From an uncultured Methanomassiliicoccales archaeon (GTDB taxonomy: Archaea > Thermoplasmatota > Thermoplasmata > Methanomassiliicoccales > UBA472), in assembly GCA_963695345.1 (NCBI GenBank), contig OY968769.1, positions 1,600,001-1,664,000 of the forward strand: a stretch of 64,000 bases of DNA, written 5' to 3'. The notes beneath the pieces are model-generated. The model saw only the letters and a list, made by a program, of their open reading frames with translations, searched no databases and was not told where the DNA came from. Numbering within the stretch: the first letter of the stretch is position 1; each line of letters starts with the position of its first letter. The position numbers and the translations under genes are program-made. Shown here one piece after another: positions 5,989 to 54,640 of the stretch.

Positions 5989-6929
5989 CAGACCGCCATC
6001 CATTTCTTGCGTTGCTCCTTCGACATTCGGTCAGCGATCCGCAGAGGATCTTTGGACCTGTCCGCGGTCGCCTTGCGTACGATCTCGACGGCGGTCCCGA
6101 GGGAGATGCGATGACCGACCGAAACGTAAAGGGGCCGGTTATTCGGGAGAGTGAGCCTGGTGCCTAGTACTTCTCCATCCACGACGATGGGTGATTCCTC
6201 TGAGCCGCTTTCCTCCACCTTTCCGACGAGAAGGCTTTTCGCCACTCCCACGGTAGGCACGTCCAGGCAGACCCCGATATGGCAGGCGATACCAAACCGC
6301 CTAGGGTGCAGGGTTCCCTGTCCATCGATCAGGTGGACGGTGTCCTGAGATGTCGGGTCTATCAGGCGGCTTAGGATAGGCAGTTCGCGATAGGTCAGGT
6401 AGGTCGGCACATACGGGAACAGGACCTTCCCCTTTTCCAGACGGCTGCCGACTATCTCTCCGGTCATGGCTTCTTGGATGACCTTGACCGCAAAGGCATC
6501 ATCGCCCCGATATGACACGTCCAGCGCCGCGTACGCGTTCGGTTCCGCAAAATCGTCACCGGCCACAACCAACGGCCTCAGCTCCTCTTGCCTGAGCCTC
6601 ATCTTCTCGAGCAGAGGCTCGATGTCGAAATCTTGGAAGAGGTGTTTCTTCAGATCAGATACCTTGCCCGCTATGATATCGACCCCCTCATCCCGCAACA
6701 GGGACTCTTTCCTTTCCCTTCCGCATCCCTTCCCGGCATACCAGCCGACCTCCCCATCATTGTAGACGATCCGGTGGCAAGGGACGACTATCGGAGTCGG
6801 GTTTTCTGAAAGTATCATGCCGACGGCCCGGGCGGCCCTTATGTCTCCAAGGGCCCGGGCTATCGCTCCGTATGTTGAGACCATTCCCCGGGGGATCTGA
6901 GCCGTGGCCTCATAGACCAGATTGGCCAT
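5988..6929 (-). CDS. O6-alkylguanine-DNA alkyltransferase / endonuclease V fusion
   Basis: N-terminal RAVG...PCHRIV; C-terminal LDVSY, PYVPTYLTYRE, DGQGTLHPRRFGIACHIG, GVAKS. The start codon is uncertain (ORF open to 7046). Confidence 0.9.
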   Translation of the reverse strand: MANLVYEATAQIPRGMVSTYGAIARALGDIRAARAVGMILSENPTPIVVPCHRIVYNDGEVGWYAGKGCGRERKESLLRDEGVDIIAGKVSDLKKHLFQDFDIEPLLEKMRLRQEELRPLVVAGDDFAEPNAYAALDVSYRGDDAFAVKVIQEAMTGEIVGSRLEKGKVLFPYVPTYLTYRELPILSRLIDPTSQDTVHLIDGQGTLHPRRFGIACHIGVCLDVPTVGVAKSLLVGKVEESGSEESPIVVDGEVLGTRLTLPNNRPLYVSVGHRISLGTAVEIVRKATADRSKDPLRIADRMSKEQRKKWMAV

Positions 6930-7023
6930 GTCATGGTCCTCGAGATCTAAACCACAGGGAACGCTGGCGGTCCCGCCCTTCCTTATCATGCCCATTGTGG
7001 GAGAGGCCATCATCGTTTTGAAT

Positions 7024-8481
7024 CTATCGCAAACCAAATGAGGCACGCCGATGTCTCCCCACTGCCATCACCAACAAAGCGCTGATCCCCAGCAGCGCCG
7101 CATCCAACAAGATTGCTATTGTCCAGTCACCCGTCGAGTCCCGGAGCGTGCCGGAAACGACAGGCGACGACAGGGCCCCGAGCTCGGCCACAAGGTTCCA
7201 CATTCCGAAGGTCTGTCCCATCTTCTCAGGCGCTGCCAGGTCCGCGGTCAGGGTCATATGGAACGTCTGCATGGCCGCGAACACGACGCCGATGGCGAAT
7301 ATCAGTGCTGTCAGCAAGATCAGGTCCGGACGGCCGGTCGAAAGGCAAAGGGCAAGAAACGAGACCAGCAGAGCCAGCAGGAAACAGGTGATGACGTACG
7401 CCTTCTTTCTTCCTGCTGGGGATATCCGGTCTCCGATCTTGCCCCCGATGGGATATCCTAGGATATTGGCCAGACCAAAGAAACCCGCATAGAGCGCCGC
7501 CCCGGCGATCCCAAGGTTCGCCGCTTCGCTCACCACCATCGTTGCCCAGAATCCGAAGAACCATAACGTATAGAGGATCGGGATGGCCGAAACATACATC
7601 AACAGGAGGTCACGGCCCATTATCGACCGGTCGATGGTGCGACCTGAACCCTTGACGATGAACAGCAGAAGCACCATGGCCAAAGACCCTACCGCCACCG
7701 CCTGTAATATGGTGTTCAAGCCCAGCTCGACGGTCAGCGTATAGACGGCCATGATGGACAGGAAGATCACCGCCGAGGTTGCGCCCAGTCCAATAAGGGC
7801 GCGACGGTAGCTACCCTTGACTGGCTGTTCTTTCCCTTTGAATCGGAATAGTAGGAGCGATATCAGAAGGGTCGGTCCCGAGAATATCAGGAAAGGTACA
7901 GTCCAGGCTGTTTCCTTCCCCAGGCTTTGCGCTGCCAGGTCCAGTATGTAAGGGGTGAGCACGGTCGCGATGGTGAGCCCCGTTCCCAGACCCACGAACA
8001 CGATGCCCATTCCCATAGCCCTTTTTTCCTTCGGGGTCTCCGCGGCGACCAACGCTCGGTCGTTGGAGTAGTACGCCCCCTCGCCTAGGCCAGTCGCCAC
8101 CCTGGTGGAGACGAATGCGGTCAGGGTGTTGGACAGGGCAGTGATCCCGGTGAAAATCCCCGCCCACGCGGTGCTGATCACCAGCAGGACCTTCCGCCCG
8201 TACTTGTCACCCAAGTATCCGGCTGGGAATTGGGTTAGCATATACCCGGCGAAGAACATCGATCCGATTATTCCGCCGATGGCATACGGCACCGTCGTGT
8301 CGGAAAGGAAGGATACCTCGTTGGCGATCATCCAGGACACGACCGGTCCGGTAATGGACCGATCTATATAGCAAAACATCCAGGCCAGGAAAAGATAGAC
8401 CCAGAGGGTATGGTAGCGCTTCCACCCCGTACGAAATCGATGATGCTTACCTTCCTCTTCCGGACCGTCCACCAGCTTCAC
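7024..8481 (-). CDS. MFS transporter
   Basis: CYIDR and GYLGDKYGRK (MFS motif A); many TM segments. Confidence 0.88.
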   Translation of the reverse strand: MKLVDGPEEEGKHHRFRTGWKRYHTLWVYLFLAWMFCYIDRSITGPVVSWMIANEVSFLSDTTVPYAIGGIIGSMFFAGYMLTQFPAGYLGDKYGRKVLLVISTAWAGIFTGITALSNTLTAFVSTRVATGLGEGAYYSNDRALVAAETPKEKRAMGMGIVFVGLGTGLTIATVLTPYILDLAAQSLGKETAWTVPFLIFSGPTLLISLLLFRFKGKEQPVKGSYRRALIGLGATSAVIFLSIMAVYTLTVELGLNTILQAVAVGSLAMVLLLFIVKGSGRTIDRSIMGRDLLLMYVSAIPILYTLWFFGFWATMVVSEAANLGIAGAALYAGFFGLANILGYPIGGKIGDRISPAGRKKAYVITCFLLALLVSFLALCLSTGRPDLILLTALIFAIGVVFAAMQTFHMTLTADLAAPEKMGQTFGMWNLVAELGALSSPVVSGTLRDSTGDWTIAILLDAALLGISALLVMAVGRHRRASFGLR

Positions 8482-45877: not shown

Positions 45878-48800
45878 CTAACGGGAGCGGTAACGATCGA
45901 CCAGCGCTTCGATCTTGCGCAGTTCCCGGTTCCTGTCCTCCACCCAGTCCCTCGACCAGATGCGGTGCATGTTCCAGCCGAGACCCTGGAGGACGTCTTC
46001 CCGAAGCCGCTCCCGGTCCCGGGCGGTGCGCCCGGAGGCATAGTTGAGACCGTCACATTCGATCCCCAGTATATGCTTTTGGTTCTTCTCCGGGTCCATC
46101 ACCGCCATGTCTAGGCGGTATCCGGAACATCCCACGCTGCGATGCAGGGTCAGCCCCATATTGCTGAGGGTGTTGAAGATCGAGTCCTCCAGCGGTTTGT
46201 CTCCCTCATCCTCGTGGCGACTGTCGCATCCTAGCGCGCTCCTATCTCCGCGGCCCCGGGCGAACTCCATGTATCGGCGCAGGAGCAGGACTCCTTTGGA
46301 GGACGAATTGGGATCGATGTCCTCCGGCTGCATCGACGACACAAGCTTCACCTGCCGCCTGGCCCGGGTGATGGCCACGTTAAGTCTGCGGTGCCCTCCT
46401 TCCATGTTCAATGGACCGAAGTTCATGACCAGCTTCCCGTCCAGGTCCTTCCCGTATCCTACGCTGAAGAACATGACATCCCTCTCGTCCCCCTGCACGT
46501 TCTCCAGGTTCTTGACGAAGAACGATTCCTCCTGGCCCTCGTCGAAGTACTGCTGGAAGTCGGGCTTCAGCTTTTTCATGTACTCGATAACATCGAGGAT
46601 GGCGAGTTGCTGCTCCTCGCTGAAGGCGACCACTCCCAGGGACATCTCGGGGTGCGCCTTGAACTGCTCGAACACCAGGTCGGCCACCTTCTTGGCCTCC
46701 ATCTTGTTGTCCCGTTTGCCCCCCCGGTCATAGACGCCCTCGGGCACATGCACGAACTCGATGCCGCTGGTAGGGCCAGGCAGGTCTGCCGATGGGAACG
46801 TATACAGACGGTTTTCATAGTAGTATGCGTTGGAAAAGGCGATCAGCGATTCGTTCCGCGAGCGATAGTGCCACAGCAGCATCTTCTGCGGCATGCCGAT
46901 GGTCGCGCATTCATCAAGTATGCTCTCCAGGTCCTGGATCTCGGTTTCCTCGTCCCCTTCTATCTTCTCGAAGAACCGGGTGGGTGGCAACTGCTTGCTG
47001 TCACCGACGACCACAAGCTGCCTCCCCCGCATGACACTCCCGATGGCGTCCTCGGGGCAGATCTGCGACGCCTCGTCGAAGATGACGACATCGAATCGAA
47101 TCTTCCGGGGGTCAATGAACTGACAGGCGGAAAGGGGTGACATCATGACGCAGGGCTTGATCAGCGGCAGGAGATCTGGCATGTCGGACAGCAGCTTCCG
47201 AATGGCCATCTGCTTCGATTTCTTGGCCATCTCCTTACGCAGCATGGTCTCCTGCATCCTAACCGGGCTAGCCGGGTCGGCGGTTCGCATCTTATCCACA
47301 CGCTGCCTCAGCTCGAACGACAATCTCCTGCGCGCCAGGATCAGCTGCGTCTGGTCCAGCTTACGGAACTCCTGGATGAGCGCGGTGTGCTCGGCGCTGT
47401 TGAACCCGGCCAGCAAGGGAACGTGCCGACGGGACGAGTCGATCCACAGGGTGAAGAAGCGTTTGCGGAACATCTTCACCAGCTTTGAGGCATCCGAAGG
47501 ATCCCTCATCACCAGGTCCAGTAGGGAATCGAGTCCGCTGGCCCTCACCTGTTCCTCCGCATCCCTGAGCTCCACCCACTCCCTGAGCCGTTCCCTGGCG
47601 CTCAGGTGCGCCATGACGAAGTCCCGGGCATCGGTCAACGGTGCGGACTCCAGTGGAGTCTCCCCCAATATGAACTTGCCTCCGCGAAGGTACTGGCCGG
47701 GAACTTGGGAGGCAGACTTCAGGGCCTCGAGGGAGGTCCTTGCCTTGTCCGTGATGACCTTAAGGCTCCCAATTCCTTCCCGGTCCTCACAGGCCAGTCC
47801 TGATCAGTTCGCCGTTAAGGTCGGCCCCGGCCCTCTGCATCAGCTCCTTGCTCCACTGGAGAGCGGCCATGAGGGCGTCCCAATCCGTTCCGGGTCCGTC
47901 GAAGTACTTCCCGAACGTCCTGTAATCCTCGGTATAGGATGAGTTGAGCGATCTGCGCGCATCCTGGAACACCTTGAGCGCCCTGACATCGTTCAATGCC
48001 TCCTCATATTCCAGCCGGTGCTGGCTGAGAAGGTGCATCGAGAGCACCTTGACGTCGGTGCGATAGTCGGTGTTCATCATCCTCAATGAATTGTTGTAAT
48101 CGACCTCGAACTTCCGGCTGAAATGCTCCCCGTCCAGTTCCAGGAACTTCTGGTCATACTTGCCCAGGAGGTGCTTTCGGCTGGAATCCAATGATCGGAA
48201 GGTGGCCCTCTCTGTCTCCACCCGCTTGATCAGGTCTCCGATGAGACGCGGCTCCATCCAATTCTTTAGCGGGAACGGGGTGGTCGTGACATAGGAGGCC
48301 AGGTCGACGATTCGCTTGCCGTCGTTCAAAGACTTCGGAGCGCCGACGTGGGCTTTCTCGGCCAATAGTGCGAACTTCGGCAGGGCGTCATCGATGGCGC
48401 TGACCAGCACCTCCAGCGAATGAAGGAACTCCTGCTGCCTTCCCATGTCCATGGCCACCGGTTCGACATCGTGCCAAGGGTGCGATCCCCGTACCGAGAG
48501 AACGTCCCTCCTTCCGGCCAATCGTTCCAGGCTCGACTCCATCATGTCGATATCTTTACGGTCCAGCTCAAAGGGGTCGGCCATCTTGAAGGGCAGGTCC
48601 GGCACGTCGTGCAGCTCGGCCAGACGGCCATAGGCGTCGAAGAGGGAAAGCCCTATCGCCCCCATCTTCATGTGCAGGAAATGCACGTAGGCGTTCAGCC
48701 GGTCCCTCACCGACGCCACCCTCTCGAGGTCCGTCAGGTCCGGCTCCTTCGCCCTCTCGTTACCGTCCAGCGGCCTTCCCAGGGAAACGATCACATCGCT

Positions 48801-49904
48801 CTTGTTGGGCGTGTTGCTGTGCAGTTCCAGGCAGAAGTCGCCAAGACGGCAGGTGTCAAGGCGCTTCTTGACCACCTCCAACGCGGCCATCTTCTCGCTG
48901 ACGAACAGGACGGTCTTGCCCGCCCACATGCTCTCCGCGATCAAATTGGCGATCGTCTGGCTCTTTCCGGTTCCGGGAGGTCCCTGGAGCACCAGGTTCG
49001 TCCCTCGGCGGATGGCCTCGATGGCCTCGAATTGGCTGGAATCGGCGTCCAGCACCAGGTGGGAATCGATGGGCTTGACCAGCTCGTCCAGCCTCTCGGC
49101 GGTCGGCAGGTCCTTGGGCGTCTGCGGCAGAAGGCTGGGGTCTCCTGCCAAGGCCCGCACTATCGGGTGTGCGGCGGCCACGTCCTCATTGGTCTTCAGA
49201 TCCTCGTACATGGCCAGCTTTGTGAAGGAGAAAATGCCCAGGTATGATTCGCGGGCGACGCTCCACCCGGTCTTCTTGGCGATGGCCAGCTCGACCTGTT
49301 TCAGATAAGCCTCGATGTCGAACTCCTCCACATCGTCCGGCATCGCTGGAAGGTCGATGCCCTGGTCGGTCCTCATCTTGAGGACTAGGGATGGATTCAG
49401 GACAGCCTCGTCCCCGAAACGGGCCACCGTATACGGGTTGAAGGGTTTTTTGCCCAGCTGCACTGGTATCAATACGAGCGGGGAGGCGATCTCCCTGTCG
49501 TCGCCCTCCTTTTCCTTCCATCGAAGGATGCCGAAAGTGGCGTACAGCACGTTAACGCCCTGTTCCTGCATGAACGTCCTGGCCTTGAGGCGGGTCTGAT
49601 AGAGCACCTTTTCCGTGTTCGGGTTCAGGGTCGAGGGCATAACCTGTCCCGGCAGGACATGGAGCCGGTCCTTCAGCAGGCATTCCCTGGCCCCTTCTTC
49701 TGAGGCGTCCATCTCATCCCTGATCTCGGGACAGATGACCGCCATTGGTCTATTCTTCCTAGCGATGGAGTCGAAAAGGACATCCATGGAAGGTTCAATG
49801 AACTGAACGGTCGAGGATTTCGTGAGCTTGAAATTTAAAAGGCGGTTTCGAAGGCTCAGGTCAATGAGCCGTGAGCGCCAATGATCCATTTTCTTGGACA
49901 CCAT
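45878..49904 (-). CDS. DUF4011-SF1 helicase-Vsr-like nuclease (frameshift near 47797)
   Basis: LIDLSLRNRLLNF (DUF4011), QGPPGTGKSQTI, FDEASQ, GDSKQLPP, QGDERD, RRLNVAITRAR, IECDG and GWNMHRIWS. A 1-nt shift joins the two ORFs through LACEDREG...FILGETP. Confidence 0.88.
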
Positions 49905-50236
49905 CACGTTGCCGTTCTCCGTCAATGCTCCACCGTTGAGTGGCATGGAGCGGTACTGACATAAGGGATTCGGTCTGACATTGATGTCTTAGGAATTATC
50001 GCCGTGCTATTGACTGTCACGGATATATATGGCTGCCGGACTGGCGGTGTCAGGAAGAAATTCGACCCTGATAAATGACCTATTATTAACACATGATGTT
50101 TTCTAACCGAAGCATCTGACACAAAGCCATTTAAGCATCGAACTGAATCGAAAGGATAGGCACTCGTATTCCTTTCAGATTGAATAGTGATTAAATATGA
50201 AGTTAGTCATACGGTGATGCTTATCGAGGGAAGAAT

Positions 50237-51373
50237 TTGATACGGTTTGGTCCAGCTGGTATTCCGCTTTCATGTAAAGGAAGGACTCTCAAAGATGGCA
50301 TCGAGGATGTTCACAATCTCGGTCTCAATGCCATGGAAGTCCAGATGGTCAGGGTCAATGTCGTCGAAAGAAATCCTGACGACGAGGAGGTAGGCCTGAC
50401 GCCGCTGGACATCGCTAGCGATGTCGTGGTCGAGATCGTCCGGCACAAGGGCAAGAAGGACACGGTCATCGCCGATCTGAACGAAAAGATCAAGGCGGAC
50501 GATACGCTCATCACATTGGCCTCCGGCCTGGTCCAGAACTTCAAGGAGCTCATCACCCTCGGTCACATGGGCGCTGAACTGGATGTCCAGCTGTCCATGC
50601 ACACCCCCTATTATATGGACCTCACCAGCGACAACGAGCTCACCCAGAAGAGCATCGACAGCATCCGCTGGGCTGGAATGCTCACCAACCAGATGAAGGG
50701 GAACATGGTAATCTCCCACCTGGGCCTTTACGGCAACATGTCCAAGAAGGAGGCCGTGGAGACCATCACTGGGAACGTGACCGATATCATGGATTGGTGG
50801 GAGAAGAACGAGATCAAGCCGTTGCTCGGTTTCGAGACCTCCGGAAGGCAGGAGGTGTTCGGCTCCGTCGAGGAACTGATGGACCTATGCGACAAGGTGG
50901 ACGGGATCGTCCCGGTTATCAACTTCGCCCACGTCCATGCGAGACAGAACGGGACATTGAGAGAGCCGCAGGACTTCAGGGAACTGTTCGACAAGGTCAA
51001 GTCCCAGGTCAAGGGCCACTACTATACCCATTTCTCCGGTGTGGAGCATGAGTCAGGGAACGAAAAGAGGGTCACCCCGATCAAGAAGGGCGATCTCCGG
51101 TTCGAGCCCCTGGCCGAGTTCCTGGTGGAGGAGAACCCGGACTGTACCATCATATCCAGCTCACCGCTGCTCGAGCATGACGCCATGTACATGAAGGTCA
51201 TCTACGAGCGCATCCTGACCAAGAAGGTCTCCAAGGAGACCAAGGTCAAGAAGCCGGAAAAGGTCGACAAGGGCGAGAAGGCGGAAAAGGCCACCAAGCA
51301 CGTCAAGGATGTGAAGGGCCGCGCCCCCCGGGTCGAGACCAACGATGACGACCTGGAAGATGATTACGATTGA
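50237..51373 (+). CDS. Endonuclease IV-like TIM-barrel protein
   Basis: IRFGPAGIP, MHTPYY, ETSG, FAHVHAR and HFSG motifs; Lys-rich then acidic tail. Confidence 0.8.
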   Translation: MIRFGPAGIPLSCKGRTLKDGIEDVHNLGLNAMEVQMVRVNVVERNPDDEEVGLTPLDIASDVVVEIVRHKGKKDTVIADLNEKIKADDTLITLASGLVQNFKELITLGHMGAELDVQLSMHTPYYMDLTSDNELTQKSIDSIRWAGMLTNQMKGNMVISHLGLYGNMSKKEAVETITGNVTDIMDWWEKNEIKPLLGFETSGRQEVFGSVEELMDLCDKVDGIVPVINFAHVHARQNGTLREPQDFRELFDKVKSQVKGHYYTHFSGVEHESGNEKRVTPIKKGDLRFEPLAEFLVEENPDCTIISSSPLLEHDAMYMKVIYERILTKKVSKETKVKKPEKVDKGEKAEKATKHVKDVKGRAPRVETNDDDLEDDYD

Positions 51374-51910
51374 AGGAAGCCTCGGCGTATATCCTGAATG
51401 AGGTCCAGGAGGCCCTGGACAAGGTAGACCAGACAAAGGTGTCCGAGGTCATCGACATGATCCTCTCCGCGAAGAAGATATTCGTATACGGGGTAGGACG
51501 GTCCGGTCTGGTCGGCAAATCTTTCGCGGTTCGCCTGGTCCAGCTGGGGATGGACGTGCATTTCGTCGGTGACATGACCACCCCGATCGTCGAGCAGGGC
51601 GACCTGGTAATTCTCATATCGAACACCGGCGAGACGATGTCGGCGGTGCAGACGGCGAACATCGTCGGGCGCATCGGTTCCAAGATAGTCTCGGTGACAT
51701 CATCGGTACATTCCAAGCTCGGTTCCATCTCCGATGTGGTCCTGGAGATAACACCAGAACAAGGACGAGCAGAGGAAGAGGCTGGCCCCGCTGGGGACGA
51801 TCTTCGAGGTCTCCACCTCCATCCTCCTGGATTCACTGGTCCCGGTGCTCATGCAGCGCCTGTCCCAGACAGAATCGTCAATGAGAAAGCGACACGCTAT
51901 CTGGGTCTGA
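51370..51910 (+). CDS. hxlB: 6-phospho-3-hexuloisomerase (SIS) (frameshift near 51760)
   Basis: GVGRSG and ISNTGET motifs; LAPLGTIFE...RHAIWV* in the shifted frame. Confidence 0.82.
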
Positions 51911-51926
51911 GTCCTTGCCTTTCTGG

Positions 51927-52560
51927 TTATTTGAGCAGCCGCTTGCGCACGCTCTCGCCGTAGTATGGGTTCTGGAACTCGTCCCAGTAGATGGCGAACG
52001 GTCGGTGCAATGACCGGCCGTTCACCACCTTGAAGGTCTCGATCTCCATGTTGACCGGATCGATGACCAAGGCGCTGTGGGACGGCCGGTTGAACATCGA
52101 CACCTGGGTGTCGATATCCGTCTGGGAAAGGAAACAGCCGTGTCCAGGATGGGAATGGTACCATCCCACGATGAGATAGTCGAACCCGCAGTCGTCCAAT
52201 GAGTCGAAAAGTTTCTCGAAGCCCTGCCGATCGAACCTTACCGAGACCAGCGAGGCATCGAGATCGGTGGTCACGACATCCCTGACCAGGACGTACTCAC
52301 TTCCGTTATGCTGGTAAAGGGTGCCGAGCAGCAGCCCCATCACCTCCATGCGGGGGCGAGAGCCGGCTCAGGGCGTGGTTCCTTAGTTTTTCTTCGGCCA
52401 GTTTTGAGATGTAGAGGTCGAATCCTATCTGTTCCGATTCCTTGTAACGTTCCAATGAGGCATTGGTCAGCCATTTATGATGGCCGATGCGCTCCTTCTC
52501 CGGGGGCGCCTTGTTCTGGGCCTTTCTTTCGGTACTGCCGATTATCCTGGGCAAGGTCAC
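51927..52560 (-). CDS. JAMM/MPN+ metalloprotease, Rpn11/CSN5-like (frameshift near 52352)
   Basis: MEVMGLLLG...VGWYHSHPGHGCFLSQTDIDTQ...ALVIDP; the GTG start overlaps the E2 stop. Confidence 0.92.
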
Positions 52561-53061
52561 TTGCGCACCACCTTGGGAAGAGCGGTCGTAACGATCGGAA
52601 GGGTTCTGGTGCCATTGTTGAAAAAGGCAGCCGCCTCGGTGCAGCTGGAGGTGCCGAACGGGCTTTCACCGTTAGGTGCCATCAGCAGCGACTCTATGCC
52701 TTTGACGAAGGTCAGGATGGTCGAATTGAAGCTCCATTCGCTCAGCAGTTTTGTGCAAACATGGCCTCCATCCTCCGGGGCCATGATGTTCGGGTGAAAT
52801 ATCGGCGTCTTCCAGATGACCGCCGGTTTCTCGAACGGGTAGTTCGATGAGATAATGATCCGGAACCGGTGGTTGTATCGGTTGATGACCTTACCACCTT
52901 CTTGGACCGGACCAGGCGTATTGTGGAGCTCAATCTCGAACTCCAGCGGGATATTGCTCCAATTTCCCGTCGGTGGTGTCCAGTGTGGTCTTCAGATATT
53001 TCGAGCATTGGGTTAGTTCATTGCGAAGGCGAGAAATCAGAATGTCCTTCGGCAAGGGCAT
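52557..53061 (-). CDS. UBC-type E2 conjugating enzyme (frameshift near 52960)
   Basis: Manual translation: MPLPKDILISRLRNEL...YPFEKPAVIWKTPIFHPNIMAPEDGGHVCTKLLSEWSFNSTILTFVKGIESLLMAPNGESP. Confidence 0.9.
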
Positions 53062-53303
53062 CAGTTACCGCCCTCGGGATCGGGGATCAGCTCAATCTCG
53101 TCGTTCTCGACGAAGCCCAGATCTCCGATCATCTGTTCGCCCTTGAGGAGTCTCTTGCCTTTGCGAATGACGTAAGCACCCGCATCCTTCTCCCAGTACA
53201 TGGCGATGCTGTCGATGATCTCCTGTACCGAATTGGACGGCTCTAGGTCCATCGCAACGTTCGAACCGGTCTCTGCGTTCTTAATTATGACCCTGACTCC
53301 CAT
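53061..53303 (-). CDS. Ubiquitin-like protein, 80 aa, C-terminal GG-N
   Basis: MGVRVIIKNAETGSNVAMDLEPSNSV...IRKGKRLL...IELIPDPEGGN; aligns by eye to ubiquitin; the stop overlaps the E2 ATG (TGATG). Confidence 0.88.
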   Translation of the reverse strand: MGVRVIIKNAETGSNVAMDLEPSNSVQEIIDSIAMYWEKDAGAYVIRKGKRLLKGEQMIGDLGFVENDEIELIPDPEGGN

Positions 53304-53332
53304 TGTTGCACCATGATCTTGGACGATTTCAG

Positions 53333-53341
53333 ATATAAAAT
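53333..53341 (-). promoter_or_regulatory. Putative internal TATA box upstream of the Ubl gene
   Basis: ATTTTATAT on the minus strand, about 30 nt before the Ubl ATG, in the E1-Ubl spacer. Confidence 0.55.
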
Positions 53342-53392
53342 AGCTTGGCACTAGAGTAATCATATCTGAGAACGACCGCATCAGGTCCAGGA

Positions 53393-54181
53393 TCATCGAT
53401 CTTGGTGCATGGGACATTCCTGGTCCAGCCCGACCTCGAGCTCTTCGGCAGAACCGCTCAGTCCGTCGTAGAACATGACGTTCCTGATGCAATTCCCCTC
53501 CTTGCCGCTGACCAGCTTCAGGGCCTCCCTTACCTGGATGGCCGCCACAACGCTTGTGGTGGTTATCTCGGCGGGCATCTTCGGCTCGAAGTAACTGACA
53601 TCCGACCCAGTGCAGCTGAACCTCTTTTCCATGACCCGGTAATGGGAGCGGTTCATGGCGCATTGGAGGCATGGAGTGGATGGAGGGATCACCACCTGGA
53701 CCTTGCCTCTGAAACCGTTCGTTCCGCCGTCGACGTAGGGGACACGGGCCAGGTACGAATGGGAGTTGACATGCAGCCTGGCGGCGATGTTGTCCAGACA
53801 TCCCAAGACAAGATCGAACGAGCGGAACCGGTCCACATCGTACGTTTCAATTCGAGCGATCGATGGCACAATAACGGTAGTGGGGTCCAGTTCACTTGCC
53901 CTGACGGCAACCACATCCGCCTTCAGCAGTTTCGTCTCCGCATCTCCCTCCCGGAAGAATACGCAACGGTTGAGGTTGGACCTCACCACATGGTCCATAT
54001 CGACCAATTCAATGTTCTTGAATCCGGAAAGCACCAGGTCCTTGACCACCTCGTTCCCAAGTGCTCCGGCCCCCACGACCAGGCATCTCGCCCCCGTTAT
54101 CCGGTCCATATCCAACCAGGAGATCCGGCGGGAGCGCTCAAGGCGGTCCTCATCGAACATGCCCGGTCTCAGGTTCTCCAT
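53393..54181 (-). CDS. E1/ThiF-family ubiquitin-like activating enzyme
   Basis: VVGAGALGNE, DMDHVVRSNLNR, GCLDNIAAR, CLQC, FSCT (candidate catalytic Cys) and C-terminal CPMH; TATA-like element about 27 nt before ATG 54181. Confidence 0.92.
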   Translation of the reverse strand: MENLRPGMFDEDRLERSRRISWLDMDRITGARCLVVGAGALGNEVVKDLVLSGFKNIELVDMDHVVRSNLNRCVFFREGDAETKLLKADVVAVRASELDPTTVIVPSIARIETYDVDRFRSFDLVLGCLDNIAARLHVNSHSYLARVPYVDGGTNGFRGKVQVVIPPSTPCLQCAMNRSHYRVMEKRFSCTGSDVSYFEPKMPAEITTTSVVAAIQVREALKLVSGKEGNCIRNVMFYDGLSGSAEELEVGLDQECPMHQDR

Positions 54182-54640
54182 CGGCCATGCGATTGGTCGG
54201 ATGGATAGATAAAACGATGAGGCCTGATTATGAAGAATGGTCAGATCATCGACGATGTTAGTTGGAGAATCATGCCGATCAAATGAAACGCATCGCATAT
54301 CATCGACAAGACCTTGAGGCCAGAATGCAGAGCGGCCGAATGAGACTCTTCCGAACGAACCTGCCGAGAGGCTGTCGGCAGGTCCGTGAACTGCATCAAA
54401 GTCCAAGAAAACATGAGACCGGGCCTTTAGTCGATGATGCCCTTGGAATGAGATAGATTCCAGGAACATCTTTCTTAGCCCTGGCTGTTCCCCGGTTTTC
54501 ATTCTTCCAATTGTAAAGTGACCACAACTTACCTAGTGTTCTCAAATAACCCTATATATTCAGAGAGGTTAGGCCCGAAACAATAGGACGGGTGTAACCC
54601 TGGCTAGGTGCCGGGACATCCGTCAAGGGATGGAACGGCC

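Follow-up and report, generated by a model that had tools for sequence, protein, structure and literature searches.

A probable eukaryote-type ubiquitin-like conjugation system in Methanomassiliicoccales archaea, with a minimal E1 and a candidate RING E3

A stretch of 64,000 nucleotides (nt) from an uncultured Methanomassiliicoccales archaeon (GenBank assembly GCA_963695345.1, contig OY968769.1, positions 1,600,001 to 1,664,000 of the forward strand; hereafter the window) carries on its minus strand a small operon that appears to encode an activating enzyme (E1), a ubiquitin-like modifier (Ubl), a ubiquitin-conjugating enzyme (E2) and a metalloprotease of the JAMM family. As assembled, the E2 and JAMM genes are interrupted by frameshifts. 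Does this locus encode a working cascade, in which a small protein is attached to others and taken off again, or only the remains of one, and to which of the known kinds of system does it belong? We consider it likely that it represents an intact, vertically inherited, eukaryote-type ubiquitin-like conjugation system of Methanomassiliicoccales, in which the frameshifts are errors of the assembly.

Four conserved genes and two interrupted frames

Read along the minus strand from 54181 to 51927, the genes follow each other in the order E1, Ubl, E2 and JAMM, all co-oriented, as seen in the list of open reading frames (ORFs), the sequence and its three-frame translation. E1 and Ubl are separated by 89 nt, the stop codon of Ubl and the ATG of E2 overlap at 53061 as TGATG, and the stop codon of E2 and the GTG start of JAMM overlap at 52560 as GTGA, while the ORF list buries the Ubl inside a frame of 246 amino acids (aa; 53801..53061). 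All this agrees with the original prediction, an earlier reading of the window from its letters. The hidden Markov model searches that it had proposed bore out its gene identities, with a match to the Pfam model ThiF and matches above the cut-offs to UQ_con and JAB, and the E1 motifs that it had listed (adenylation, Zn and candidate catalytic Cys), like those of E2 and JAMM, are present and invariant in the orthologues. For this purpose 16 E2, 65 E1, 79 Ubl and 72 JAMM sequences were aligned, the window's own included, and all statements below that a protein is nearer to eukaryotic ones refer to pairwise scores against PDB chains.

E2 and JAMM were searched as read-through proteins, in which a four-letter step at the break (CCCG in E2, CCGC in JAMM) is translated as P. 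The E2 matches UQ_con (PF00179) at 4e-14 with 52.8 bits against a cut-off of 27; since this family matched none of the 14 control prokaryote genomes, and since the four genes stand in the same order in dozens of relatives, a chance match is not an issue. Its best PDB chain is human UBE2C (1.9e-9), followed by UBE2T and UBE2D, and all 16 aligned sequences retain HPN89-91, Cys102 and the PN(P) motif unchanged. The JAMM protein matches JAB (PF01398) at 3e-13 with 50 bits (cut-off 22.5) and, among PDB chains, yeast Rpn11 (4.1e-19), human PSMD14 (9.3e-18), Caldiarchaeum Rpn11 (6fjv; 1.9e-13) and CSN5 (7.5e-11), with the motifs E71 and H-S-H-P-x7-S-x2-D conserved throughout its alignment.

The Ubl is less easily recognised by sequence, showing a weak likeness to the first ubiquitin hairpin and best single-domain PDB matches with E values of about 0.25 or more. 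Its AlphaFold model, built with 43 orthologues, reaches a predicted local distance difference test (pLDDT) value of 94 and displays the ubiquitin order beta-beta-alpha-beta-beta-3/10-beta. Foldseek retrieved SUMO1, ubiquitin, ISG15, NEDD8 and Caldiarchaeum ubiquitin (6fnn_C) with template-modelling (TM) scores of 0.82-0.87, and by this model the Ubl is a member of the ubiquitin fold class. Its C-terminus reads ELIPDPEGG, which is invariant and followed here by one extra Asn. The GG is never replaced: 38 of the 79 orthologues end there and 41 carry one to six residues more. A protein-atlas look-up placed the Ubl near Thermoplasmatota clusters named 'hypothetical protein' (0.96-0.98), which are leads only.

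The E1 matches ThiF in Pfam at 5.2e-49, and its PDB scores against UBA2 (1.1e-27), UBA3 (6.9e-25) and UBA1 (8.4e-22) surpass those against MoeB (1.6e-16) and ThiF (3.3e-14), so that by pairwise score the adenylation domain appears nearer to eukaryotic E1s than to MoeB/ThiF. Invariant in sets of 65 and 31 orthologues are the GxGxxG nucleotide loop with D61, R72 and D130, the zinc site CxxC...CxxH (C171, C174, C256 and H259) and Cys190, which lies in an S-C-T-G motif 16 residues past the CxxC. Residues 176-201, a loop of 26 residues, align where UBA2 has its Cys domain of about 220 residues (165-385). In the E1 model (pLDDT 82.9) residues 179-200 fall below 50 and form the only internal stretch of low confidence. 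Foldseek matches were UBA3 (adenylation domain), ThiF, MoeB and UBA5, with TM scores of 0.85-0.87 for ThiF and MoeB when normalised to the target. Modelled in this way, the E1 is a minimal enzyme of ThiF/MoeB size, with a predicted mobile crossover loop that bears Cys190.

Are the two interruptions real? The E2 frame is open for 43 codons and then continues in the +1 frame until its stop at 52557; the JAMM frame is open for 84 codons and then continues in the +1 frame until 51927. Both frames are restored when the CCC at about 52947 and the CCCCC at about 52351 (both minus strand) are each shortened by one C, and neither gene shows further stops or deletions. The adjoining SIS/PHI-like gene (51370-51963, plus strand, convergent with JAMM) is broken in the same manner at 51754, by an extra C in a CC where relatives, in which this gene is intact, imply a single C. 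Contigs of four public runs were compared with window positions 51300-54600. Those of run X1, a sediment metagenome holding 72% of the sampled words, omit exactly one letter at each of 52947, 52351 and 51754. A contig of run X2, from another study, shows the omission at 52947 and no other difference over 220 bases; runs X3 and X6 overlap only small conserved parts of the stretch and are uninformative. The E2 read-through protein shares 93% and 92% identity with its counterparts in two congeners, and the corrected JAMM frame is kept by all 72 aligned sequences. As independent contigs do not contain the extra bases and relatives are intact, we conclude that the E2 and JAMM frameshifts are assembly errors. 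The original prediction had left room for real frameshifts together with relatives that do not have intact orthologues; the unbroken contigs speak otherwise, as do the orthologues found in 32 of 40 relatives and, within the order, in 131 of 200 genomes. The source genome is a single contig of 2.56 Mb, yet only 85% complete (five of seven congeners reach 93-99%, the others 94% and 55%), which is the usual signature of uncorrected single-base indels. The assembly thus seems to carry scattered single C/G insertions, and other 'broken' genes of this genome are suspect.

The second line of evidence is distribution. The E2 frame is intact in the 32 of 40 relatives just mentioned, and a survey of 200 other genomes of the order, all with a completeness of at least 80%, found the E2 in 131 genomes and in 32 of the 34 genera sampled, the exceptions being genera g24 (0/48) and g13 (0/4). 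Across the phylum, 76 of 300 sampled genomes carry it, including members of families in other classes (f13 with 12/12, f29 with 4/5 and f32 with 3/3), and it was not found in the sampled genomes of families f8, f9 and f10 of the same class or of the large families f16 and f33. Synteny was followed in the 80 named loci that best matched the E2 alignment, all from Methanomassiliicoccales or other Thermoplasmata/Thermoplasmatota metagenome-assembled genomes. The neighbourhood is fixed as tryptophanyl-tRNA synthetase (TrpRS) (-), E1, Ubl, E2, JAMM, SIS/PHI-like (-) and a xylose-isomerase-like TIM-barrel gene (-). Matches were present for E2 in 80, Ubl in 79, JAMM in 78, E1 in 67, SIS/PHI-like in 62, TIM-barrel in 60 and TrpRS in 38 loci, several of which are cut by contig ends. 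No E1 match was obtained in 13 of the loci, and unrelated genes stand 5' of Ubl-E2-JAMM in the three of these that were inspected. In the 300 phylum genomes strong Ubl profile matches (E <1e-17) fall in genomes with strong E2 matches. The wide presence and the fixed flanks mark a vertically inherited housekeeping locus and not a mobile defence island; it is an old trait with few lineage losses. The synteny check across Thermoplasmata that had been proposed thus came out in favour of the operon, and the expectations of a Thermoplasmata-like host, whose close E2 homologues carry Methanomassiliicoccales or Methanomassiliicoccus names, and of a mostly housekeeping neighbourhood (the TrpRS, SIS/PHI-like and TIM-barrel flanks) held as well. 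Every catalytic element of the system is present, conserved and recognisable by its fold, and the genes are coupled in the genome.

Genera g24 and g13 have small genomes (1.5-2.0 Mb), and their members in the phylum sample (0/9 and 0/2) have neither the E2 nor the RING protein described below. Members of g24 give weak Ubl-like matches only (E 1e-8 to 1e-3), which probably represent another beta-grasp protein, and in both genera all components of the system seem to have disappeared jointly. In some of the 80 loci genes are inserted between E1 and Ubl or between JAMM and SIS; these encode an unrelated repeat protein and membrane proteins, none of them a RING protein.

Table 1. Genes of the operon, TATA-like boxes and the RING gene; window coordinates, except for the RING gene (source genome G000, contig C1, and locus L102)
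Feature	Position	Strand	Remarks
E1 (Ubl-activating enzyme)	53393..54181	minus	262 aa from in-frame ATG at 54181
Ubl (ubiquitin-fold modifier)	53061..53303	minus	80 aa, ends GGN
E2 (UBC-fold)	52557..53061	minus	167 aa on read-through; frame broken at ~52947
JAMM (Rpn11/CSN5-like MPN+ metalloprotease)	51927..52560	minus	210 aa on read-through; GTG start; break at ~52351
TATA-like A/T box TTTTATCTAT	54205..54214	minus	~29 nt 5' of E1 ATG; sequence reading
TATA-like box TTTTATAT	53333..53340	minus	~33 nt 5' of Ubl ATG, within E1-Ubl gap
RING + four-zinc-ribbon protein	G000:C1:666448-667398 (L102:1501-2454)	plus	317 aa; Pfam zf-RING_2 genome scan

The ORF of E1 is longer than its gene and stays open to 54502, 107 codons 5' of the ATG at 54181. 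Orthologous E1s begin at the position equivalent to this ATG. The upstream stretch (54182-54502, minus strand) does not align with them, has DUF4791 as its best Pfam match (E=0.0077, nothing over a cut-off), holds a TATA-like box (Table 1) and is most likely non-coding. The box is possibly the archaeal promoter of an E1 transcript with a short leader, and the one in the E1-Ubl gap possibly a separate promoter for Ubl-E2-JAMM, which would fit the loci where these three genes stand without an adjacent E1; on sequence grounds E1 and Ubl-E2-JAMM may form two transcription units. A scan for sigma-70 promoters and intrinsic terminators, which is ill-suited to archaea and was not used, returned no promoter-like site and three terminator-like sites where 2.3 were expected. 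Elsewhere in the window, a 719-aa ORF (47787-49946, minus strand) contains DUF4011 (1.8e-33) and the beginning of an AAA_11 helicase domain; it may represent the N-terminal portion of an Upf1-like helicase gene that is longer and possibly frame-broken.

A RING protein as candidate E3

Neither the operon nor the window contains a RING gene for a ubiquitin ligase (E3). When the source genome was scanned with Pfam zf-RING_2, a single match emerged, borderline at 22.4 bits (cut-off 27.3), and 4 of the 14 control genomes also had sub-threshold matches. The zinc ligands of the matching protein (Table 1) are spaced as C-x2-C-x10-C-x-C-x4-H-x2-C-x6-C-x2-C (C4HC3) and are followed by four zinc ribbons (Pfam DZR 5.8e-7), and all eight ligands are invariant in 15 orthologues of the order. 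A profile of the 59-residue RING retrieved from the PDB RNF4 (2.8e-7) and Arkadia (3.6e-7), as well as RNF165, NOT4, EL5, AMFR and RLIM, with PHD fingers entering the list only from about 0.01, and Pfam Prok-RING_1 did not match the protein at E<=1. The protein-atlas look-up gave values of 0.81 at most, as leads only, to Thermoplasmatota DZR proteins, an Asgard zf-RING_2 cluster and bacterial Prok-RING_1 proteins.

Two profile searches over the same 300 phylum genomes, compared by hand, found both E2 and RING in 68 genomes, E2 only in 8, RING only in 22 and neither in 202. Within the order (46 genomes) 30 have both and 16 neither, with no discordant genome; one genus among them is split 6/11 for both. 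Stronger support for a role as E3 than from co-occurrence comes from operon neighbourhoods in other Thermoplasmatota. The locus of G204 is arranged as RING-ended ORF, E1, an ORF of 3155 aa with the same RING at its end, Ubl, E2 and JAMM, that of G233 as RING ORF, E1, Ubl, E2 and JAMM, and that of G214 as giant RING ORF, Ubl, E2 and JAMM; in G318 a RING ORF adjoins two E2 genes. The 3155-aa ORF between E1 and Ubl occupies 1664-11131 of L128 (G204:C3; plus strand).

Docking was modelled with the E2 of an intact congener, the RING domain and two Zn, using alignments. The pair scored 0.64 against 0.00 for the best control, a mark that solved complexes reach in 58 of 80 cases and mismatched pairs in 2 of 110; the runs share at least 96% of contacts, with a partner pLDDT of at least 78. 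The predicted interface joins residues 3-15 (helix 1) and 111-114 of the E2 with residues 16-20, 41-45 and 49-50 of the RING, and resembles that of solved E2-RING pairs, in which helix 1 and a loop of the E2 are engaged as well. Co-occurrence, operon membership in other lineages and the docking model together make it rather likely that the RING/zinc-ribbon protein serves as the E3 of the system. The original prediction had set the window apart from Caldiarchaeum and Asgard archaea as those 'with a RING E3'; the implied contrast is probably wrong, because a conserved RING protein is encoded elsewhere in the genome and stands in the operon itself in other Thermoplasmatota.

A sequence of events can be proposed from these parts. 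The tails of the Ubl must come off before activation, which suggests a trimming role for the JAMM, and orthologue tails together with the precedent of Caldiarchaeum Rpn11 (CsRpn11), which according to the accessible part of Fuchs et al. (2018, PMC6043591) processes the tail of the precursor of Caldiarchaeum ubiquitin (CsUb), make it plausible that the Rpn11-like JAMM trims the GG-N end and exposes the Gly-Gly. The small E1, probably a homodimer like MoeB/ThiF, would then adenylate this Gly-Gly end, as its motifs suggest. The Ubl may be held as a thioester on Cys190 of the mobile crossover loop and be handed to Cys102 of the E2, whose UBC fold has the invariant HPN...Cys. The RING/zinc-ribbon protein, which the docking model places against helix 1 and loop 111-114 of the E2, could act as E3 and direct the transfer towards substrate lysines; the JAMM would also take the tag off again.

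Several points weigh against this reading of the locus. Of the three corrected sites, that of the JAMM gene at 52351 is the weakest, relying on one X1 contig with a depth of 3.5 and on orthologues, and X1 differs from the window by about 0.4-2.6% per contig (<2% for the two long ones), and so stems from a close strain only. Against Pfam ubiquitin (PF00240) the Ubl stays at E=0.01 and 16.1 bits, below the cut-off of 25.4, the one among the proposed model searches that fell short. According to the UBA2 alignment and the model, the E1 possesses neither an inserted Cys domain nor a C-terminal ubiquitin-fold domain (UFD), by which eukaryotic E1s hold and charge E2s, and so the minimal E1 raises the mechanistic question of how the E2 gets charged; Cys190 might even be dispensable. 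In the source genome the RING gene is unlinked and about 1 Mb away from the operon, and a Pfam search of its ORF gave 17.8 bits for zf-RING_2, below the cut-off of 27.3. RING occurs without E2 in 22 of the 300 genomes, including 11/15 of family f26, 3/3 of f9 and 2/2 of f11, and none of the 16 RING-bearing genomes of these three families has a Ubl match; conversely, eight genomes with E2 have no RING match. Related genomes are not independent, and co-occurrence therefore overstates the E2-RING link and is suggestive only; E2-RING pairs abound among solved structures, and the docking pass may therefore show likeness to solved complexes only. Each chemical step, the role of Cys190, that of the E3 and the lysine targets we infer from genes and models.

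Those of these points that concern the RING protein also leave some room for a cascade that runs without it, the E2 acting directly or with another partner and the RING/zinc-ribbon protein being employed otherwise, for example in a nucleic-acid or FtsZ-related function. Besides the distance of about 1 Mb and the discordant genomes, it can be held in favour of this alternative that the neighbour of the RING gene in 23 of 25 loci is ftsZ and no ubiquitin gene. It is at odds with the sample of 46 genomes from the order, in which E2 and RING are always present or absent together, with the same domain inside the operon in three other lineages, with profile matches that are RING E3 ligases, and with predicted docking on the canonical E2 surface at 0.64 versus 0.00. 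Overall we regard it as unlikely, though it is the most serious of the alternatives, and retain the RING protein as the favoured E3 candidate.

ftsZ lies directly 3' of the RING gene, co-oriented, in these 23 loci (Pfam Tubulin 1.3e-47, FtsZ_C 1.6e-26) and is missing in L119 (G038) and L138 (G064). The adjacency possibly indicates a link to cell division, a thought drawn from gene order which we do not count as evidence. On the 5' side of the RING gene is a gene in two fragments (L102 1-1107, minus strand; G000:C1 ~664948-666054), which from its sequence may encode an FAD/FeS oxidoreductase; the split fits an assembly indel. The large-genome Thermoplasmatota G267, G273, G312, G318 and G324 (3.1-5.5 Mb) have two to seven E2 matches and 14 to at least 21 RING matches, many of the latter in open frames of 1000-4900 aa and some with tandem RING copies, which looks like an expansion of E3s in a non-Asgard archaeon. 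In L130 (G318:C47), E2 (6551-6991) and JAMM (7022-7423) matches share one 552-aa frame (6494-8152, plus strand), possibly an E2-JAMM fusion, and this frame adjoins a second, divergently oriented E2 and a RING ORF.

It is a bolder and rather improbable idea that a complete cascade of E1, E2, RING E3, ubiquitin and deubiquitinase is ancestral to a large part of Thermoplasmatota, vertically inherited and separate from that of Asgard/TACK archaea. If it were true, the Asgard-centred view would underestimate both the age of full ubiquitylation and its spread among Archaea. The two to seven E2 copies and 14 to at least 21 RING matches, some in giant proteins, would then resemble a eukaryote-like radiation of E3s, and the RING gene directly 5' of ftsZ in most Methanomassiliicoccales families would hint at a tag that controls cell division.

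Sulfur transfer, defence or decay

The size of the E1 invites another explanation, by which the locus would be of the sulfur-carrier or SAMP/UbaA-like kind: the E1 alone would conjugate the Ubl or produce a thiocarboxylate that serves the thiolation of cofactors or tRNA, while the E2 would be accessory or inert. The enzyme indeed has the size and fold of MoeB/ThiF, with the TM scores of 0.85-0.87 given above, and matches the NCBIfam models ThiF, MoeB and UbaA at 1e-31 to 1e-24. Yet it reaches the cut-off of no NCBIfam model (UbaA, NF047750, 82.4-83.8 bits against a cut-off of 450), and a second gene of the source genome (G000:C1:2325918-2326664, plus strand) is the better MoeB/UbaA-like candidate with 192.6 bits to UbaA, itself below the cut-off. 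The HPN...Cys of the E2 is invariant, Ubl and E2 co-occur almost perfectly, and the fold of the modifier is ubiquitin/SUMO-like. The JAMM resembles Rpn11, and its sole match to an NCBIfam desampylase (NF041370) stays at 30.6 bits against a cut-off of 130. With a complete E2 next to an E1 and a JAMM that belong to neither the UbaA nor the desampylase equivalog, we consider this explanation highly improbable. The second MoeB/UbaA-type gene contains one internal TGA, which may be an assembly indel or a substitution.

Slightly less probable still is an anti-virus defence module of the Bil (BilABCD) or CBASS Cap2/Cap3 kind, which would tag phage or host proteins on infection. It would comprise the same four activities (E1, Ubl, E2 and JAMM), and PADLOC models give weak matches to the E1 (Cap2 'E1-E2' best at 4.4e-12, partial over 116 residues; BilD 1.6e-3) and to the JAMM ('JAB' 2.1e-6, BilC 8.8e-5). 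The E2 and the Ubl, however, match no PADLOC model at E<=0.01, none of the proteins belongs to a BilA-D, Cap2 or Cap3 profile, and all four score far better against eukaryotic ubiquitin, SUMO, NEDD8 and proteasome proteins. The locus keeps its place between housekeeping genes in different families and classes, as a mobile defence island would not, and instead of a patchy, island-borne distribution the 80 loci and 32 of 34 genera show a vertical and, in most genera, near-universal presence.

Some genera of the order have lost the E2 (g24 with 0/48, g13 with 0/4). A decaying relic, in which the E2 and JAMM frameshifts of the assembly as given are real and only E1 and Ubl function in this strain, is equally hard to believe in view of the third insertion in the adjoining housekeeping SIS/PHI-like gene, the omission of all three from X1 and of that at 52947 also from the separate study behind X2, the 85% completeness of a one-contig genome, as expected from uncorrected indels, and an E2 free of other stops or deletions that reads through at 93% and 92% identity to those of two congeners. 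An intact eukaryote-type system thus remains the preferred reading.

Relation to earlier work and known systems

The original prediction had called the system novel, as not characterised in this lineage. The second part stands: in the literature searched, with subscription journals and supplements outside the search, we found neither an experiment nor an account of the operon as a whole, of its synteny or of its RING partner. The novelty was overstated, as parts of the system are already annotated or mentioned. NCBI names an orthologue 'ubiquitin-conjugating enzyme E2 [Methanomassiliicoccus luminyensis]', JGI also annotates the E2 as such, and a genome with an E2 100% identical to that NCBI-named protein contains the full operon and the RING gene. 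In the accessible part of Fort et al. (2015, PMC4453063), M. luminyensis WP_019177758 and a Caldiarchaeum protein are listed as the two archaeal Rpn11 orthologues, and the operon goes unmentioned there. The main text of Fuchs et al. (2018, PMC6043591), as far as accessible, describes a 'JAMM-3' group and prokaryotic JAMMs nearer to Rpn11 in Ub-E1-E2 operons, with the taxa unnamed, and reports a RING in such operons only from Caldiarchaeum and Asgard archaea. The accessible text of a 2023 preprint (10.1101/2023.07.25.550441) shows a deep 'Ca. Thermoplasmatota E2' clade, and a term search of the available part of Grau-Bove et al. (2015) returned no Methanomassiliicoccus. The system is thus a new, uncharacterised member of eukaryote-like archaeal ubiquitylation that was already visible in database annotation. 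New here are the breaks as artefacts, the ancient origin and shared synteny of the operon in Methanomassiliicoccales and other Thermoplasmatota, the minimal E1 and the likely RING E3.

To our knowledge, the uncultured Caldiarchaeum is the only source of proteins with which eukaryote-like archaeal ubiquitylation has been reconstituted. Here the cascade is a conserved, housekeeping-linked trait of an order with cultured methanogens. Cultured relatives share it, as judged from the genome with the E2 of M. luminyensis, which has both the operon and the RING gene, and experiments in living cells could thus address substrates, physiology and the E3. The RING findings offer a concrete E3 candidate and suggest that archaea beyond the Asgard/TACK side of the tree also have E1-E2-E3 ubiquitylation.

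Among prokaryotic systems, Bil (BilABCD) and CBASS Cap2/Cap3 share with the operon the combination of E1, E2, Ubl and JAMM in one place, but the E2 described here is of the eukaryotic UQ_con family and its locus is syntenic with housekeeping genes and vertical. Sampylation (SAMP/UbaA/HvJAMM1) of Haloferax and other archaea resembles it in the Gly-Gly beta-grasp modifier, the MoeB-sized E1 with Zn site and loop Cys, and the reversal of tagging by a JAMM. It has no E2, whereas the E2 of our window is conserved and, by its motifs, catalytically complete, and a separate UbaA/MoeB-like gene is present in the genome.

Eukaryotic cascades provide the best sequence matches of all three enzymes, and the Ubl model has the fold of SUMO1/ubiquitin although its sequence likeness to ubiquitin is weak. 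They differ in that the E1 here is a single small polypeptide without UFD or Cys domain, there is one E2, and the JAMM is free-standing, without the Rpn8 partner or lid of eukaryotic Rpn11.

Ubiquitin systems of Asgard archaea, reportedly known since 2017, have the same set of UBC-core E2 (PF00179), E1, ubiquitin and Rpn11-like JAMM, and also a RING, to which the candidate E3 would correspond here. No link to ESCRT/UEV turned up at our locus, although no search was aimed at one. In the archaeal E2/UEV tree of the preprint cited above (10.1101/2023.07.25.550441), as far as its accessible text goes, the 'Ca. Thermoplasmatota E2' forms a separate deep clade.

The closest likeness is to Caldiarchaeum. 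The ubiquitin operon of Caldiarchaeum subterraneum (Ub, E1, E2, RING E3 and CsRpn11) was reportedly described in 2011, and work on this ubiquitin system is said to have followed in 2017. Both systems have a tailed ubiquitin-fold precursor, a ThiF-type E1, a UBC-fold E2, an Rpn11-like MPN+ protease and, likely here too, a RING-type protein, and in both, all parts resemble eukaryotic proteins more than those of SAMP or MoaD systems. CsUb and the Ubl model superpose with a TM score of 0.85 at 20% identity, and CsRpn11 matches the JAMM at the 1.9e-13 given above. In contrast, Caldiarchaeum is an uncultured Aigarchaeon and the present host belongs to a euryarchaeal-grade methanogen order with cultured members; the RING candidate here is unlinked and differs by its four zinc ribbons and C4HC3 ligands. 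As a match to the JAMM, yeast Rpn11 (72 bits) outscores CsRpn11 (53.5 bits); these pairwise scores do not assign orthology. For the Caldiarchaeum E1, the accessible text of PMC11354881 describes a distinct Cys domain of about 60 aa, in place of which we found a loop of 26 residues with C190. The Gly-Gly modifier of ubiquitin fold, the UQ_con E2 with HPN and Cys, the E1 near to those of eukaryotes and the adjacent Rpn11-like JAMM are those of the Caldiarchaeum/Asgard kind. The system is therefore neither of the Bil/CBASS kind nor a sampylation system, and belongs to the eukaryote-like archaeal kind first seen in Caldiarchaeum, here with a minimal E1.

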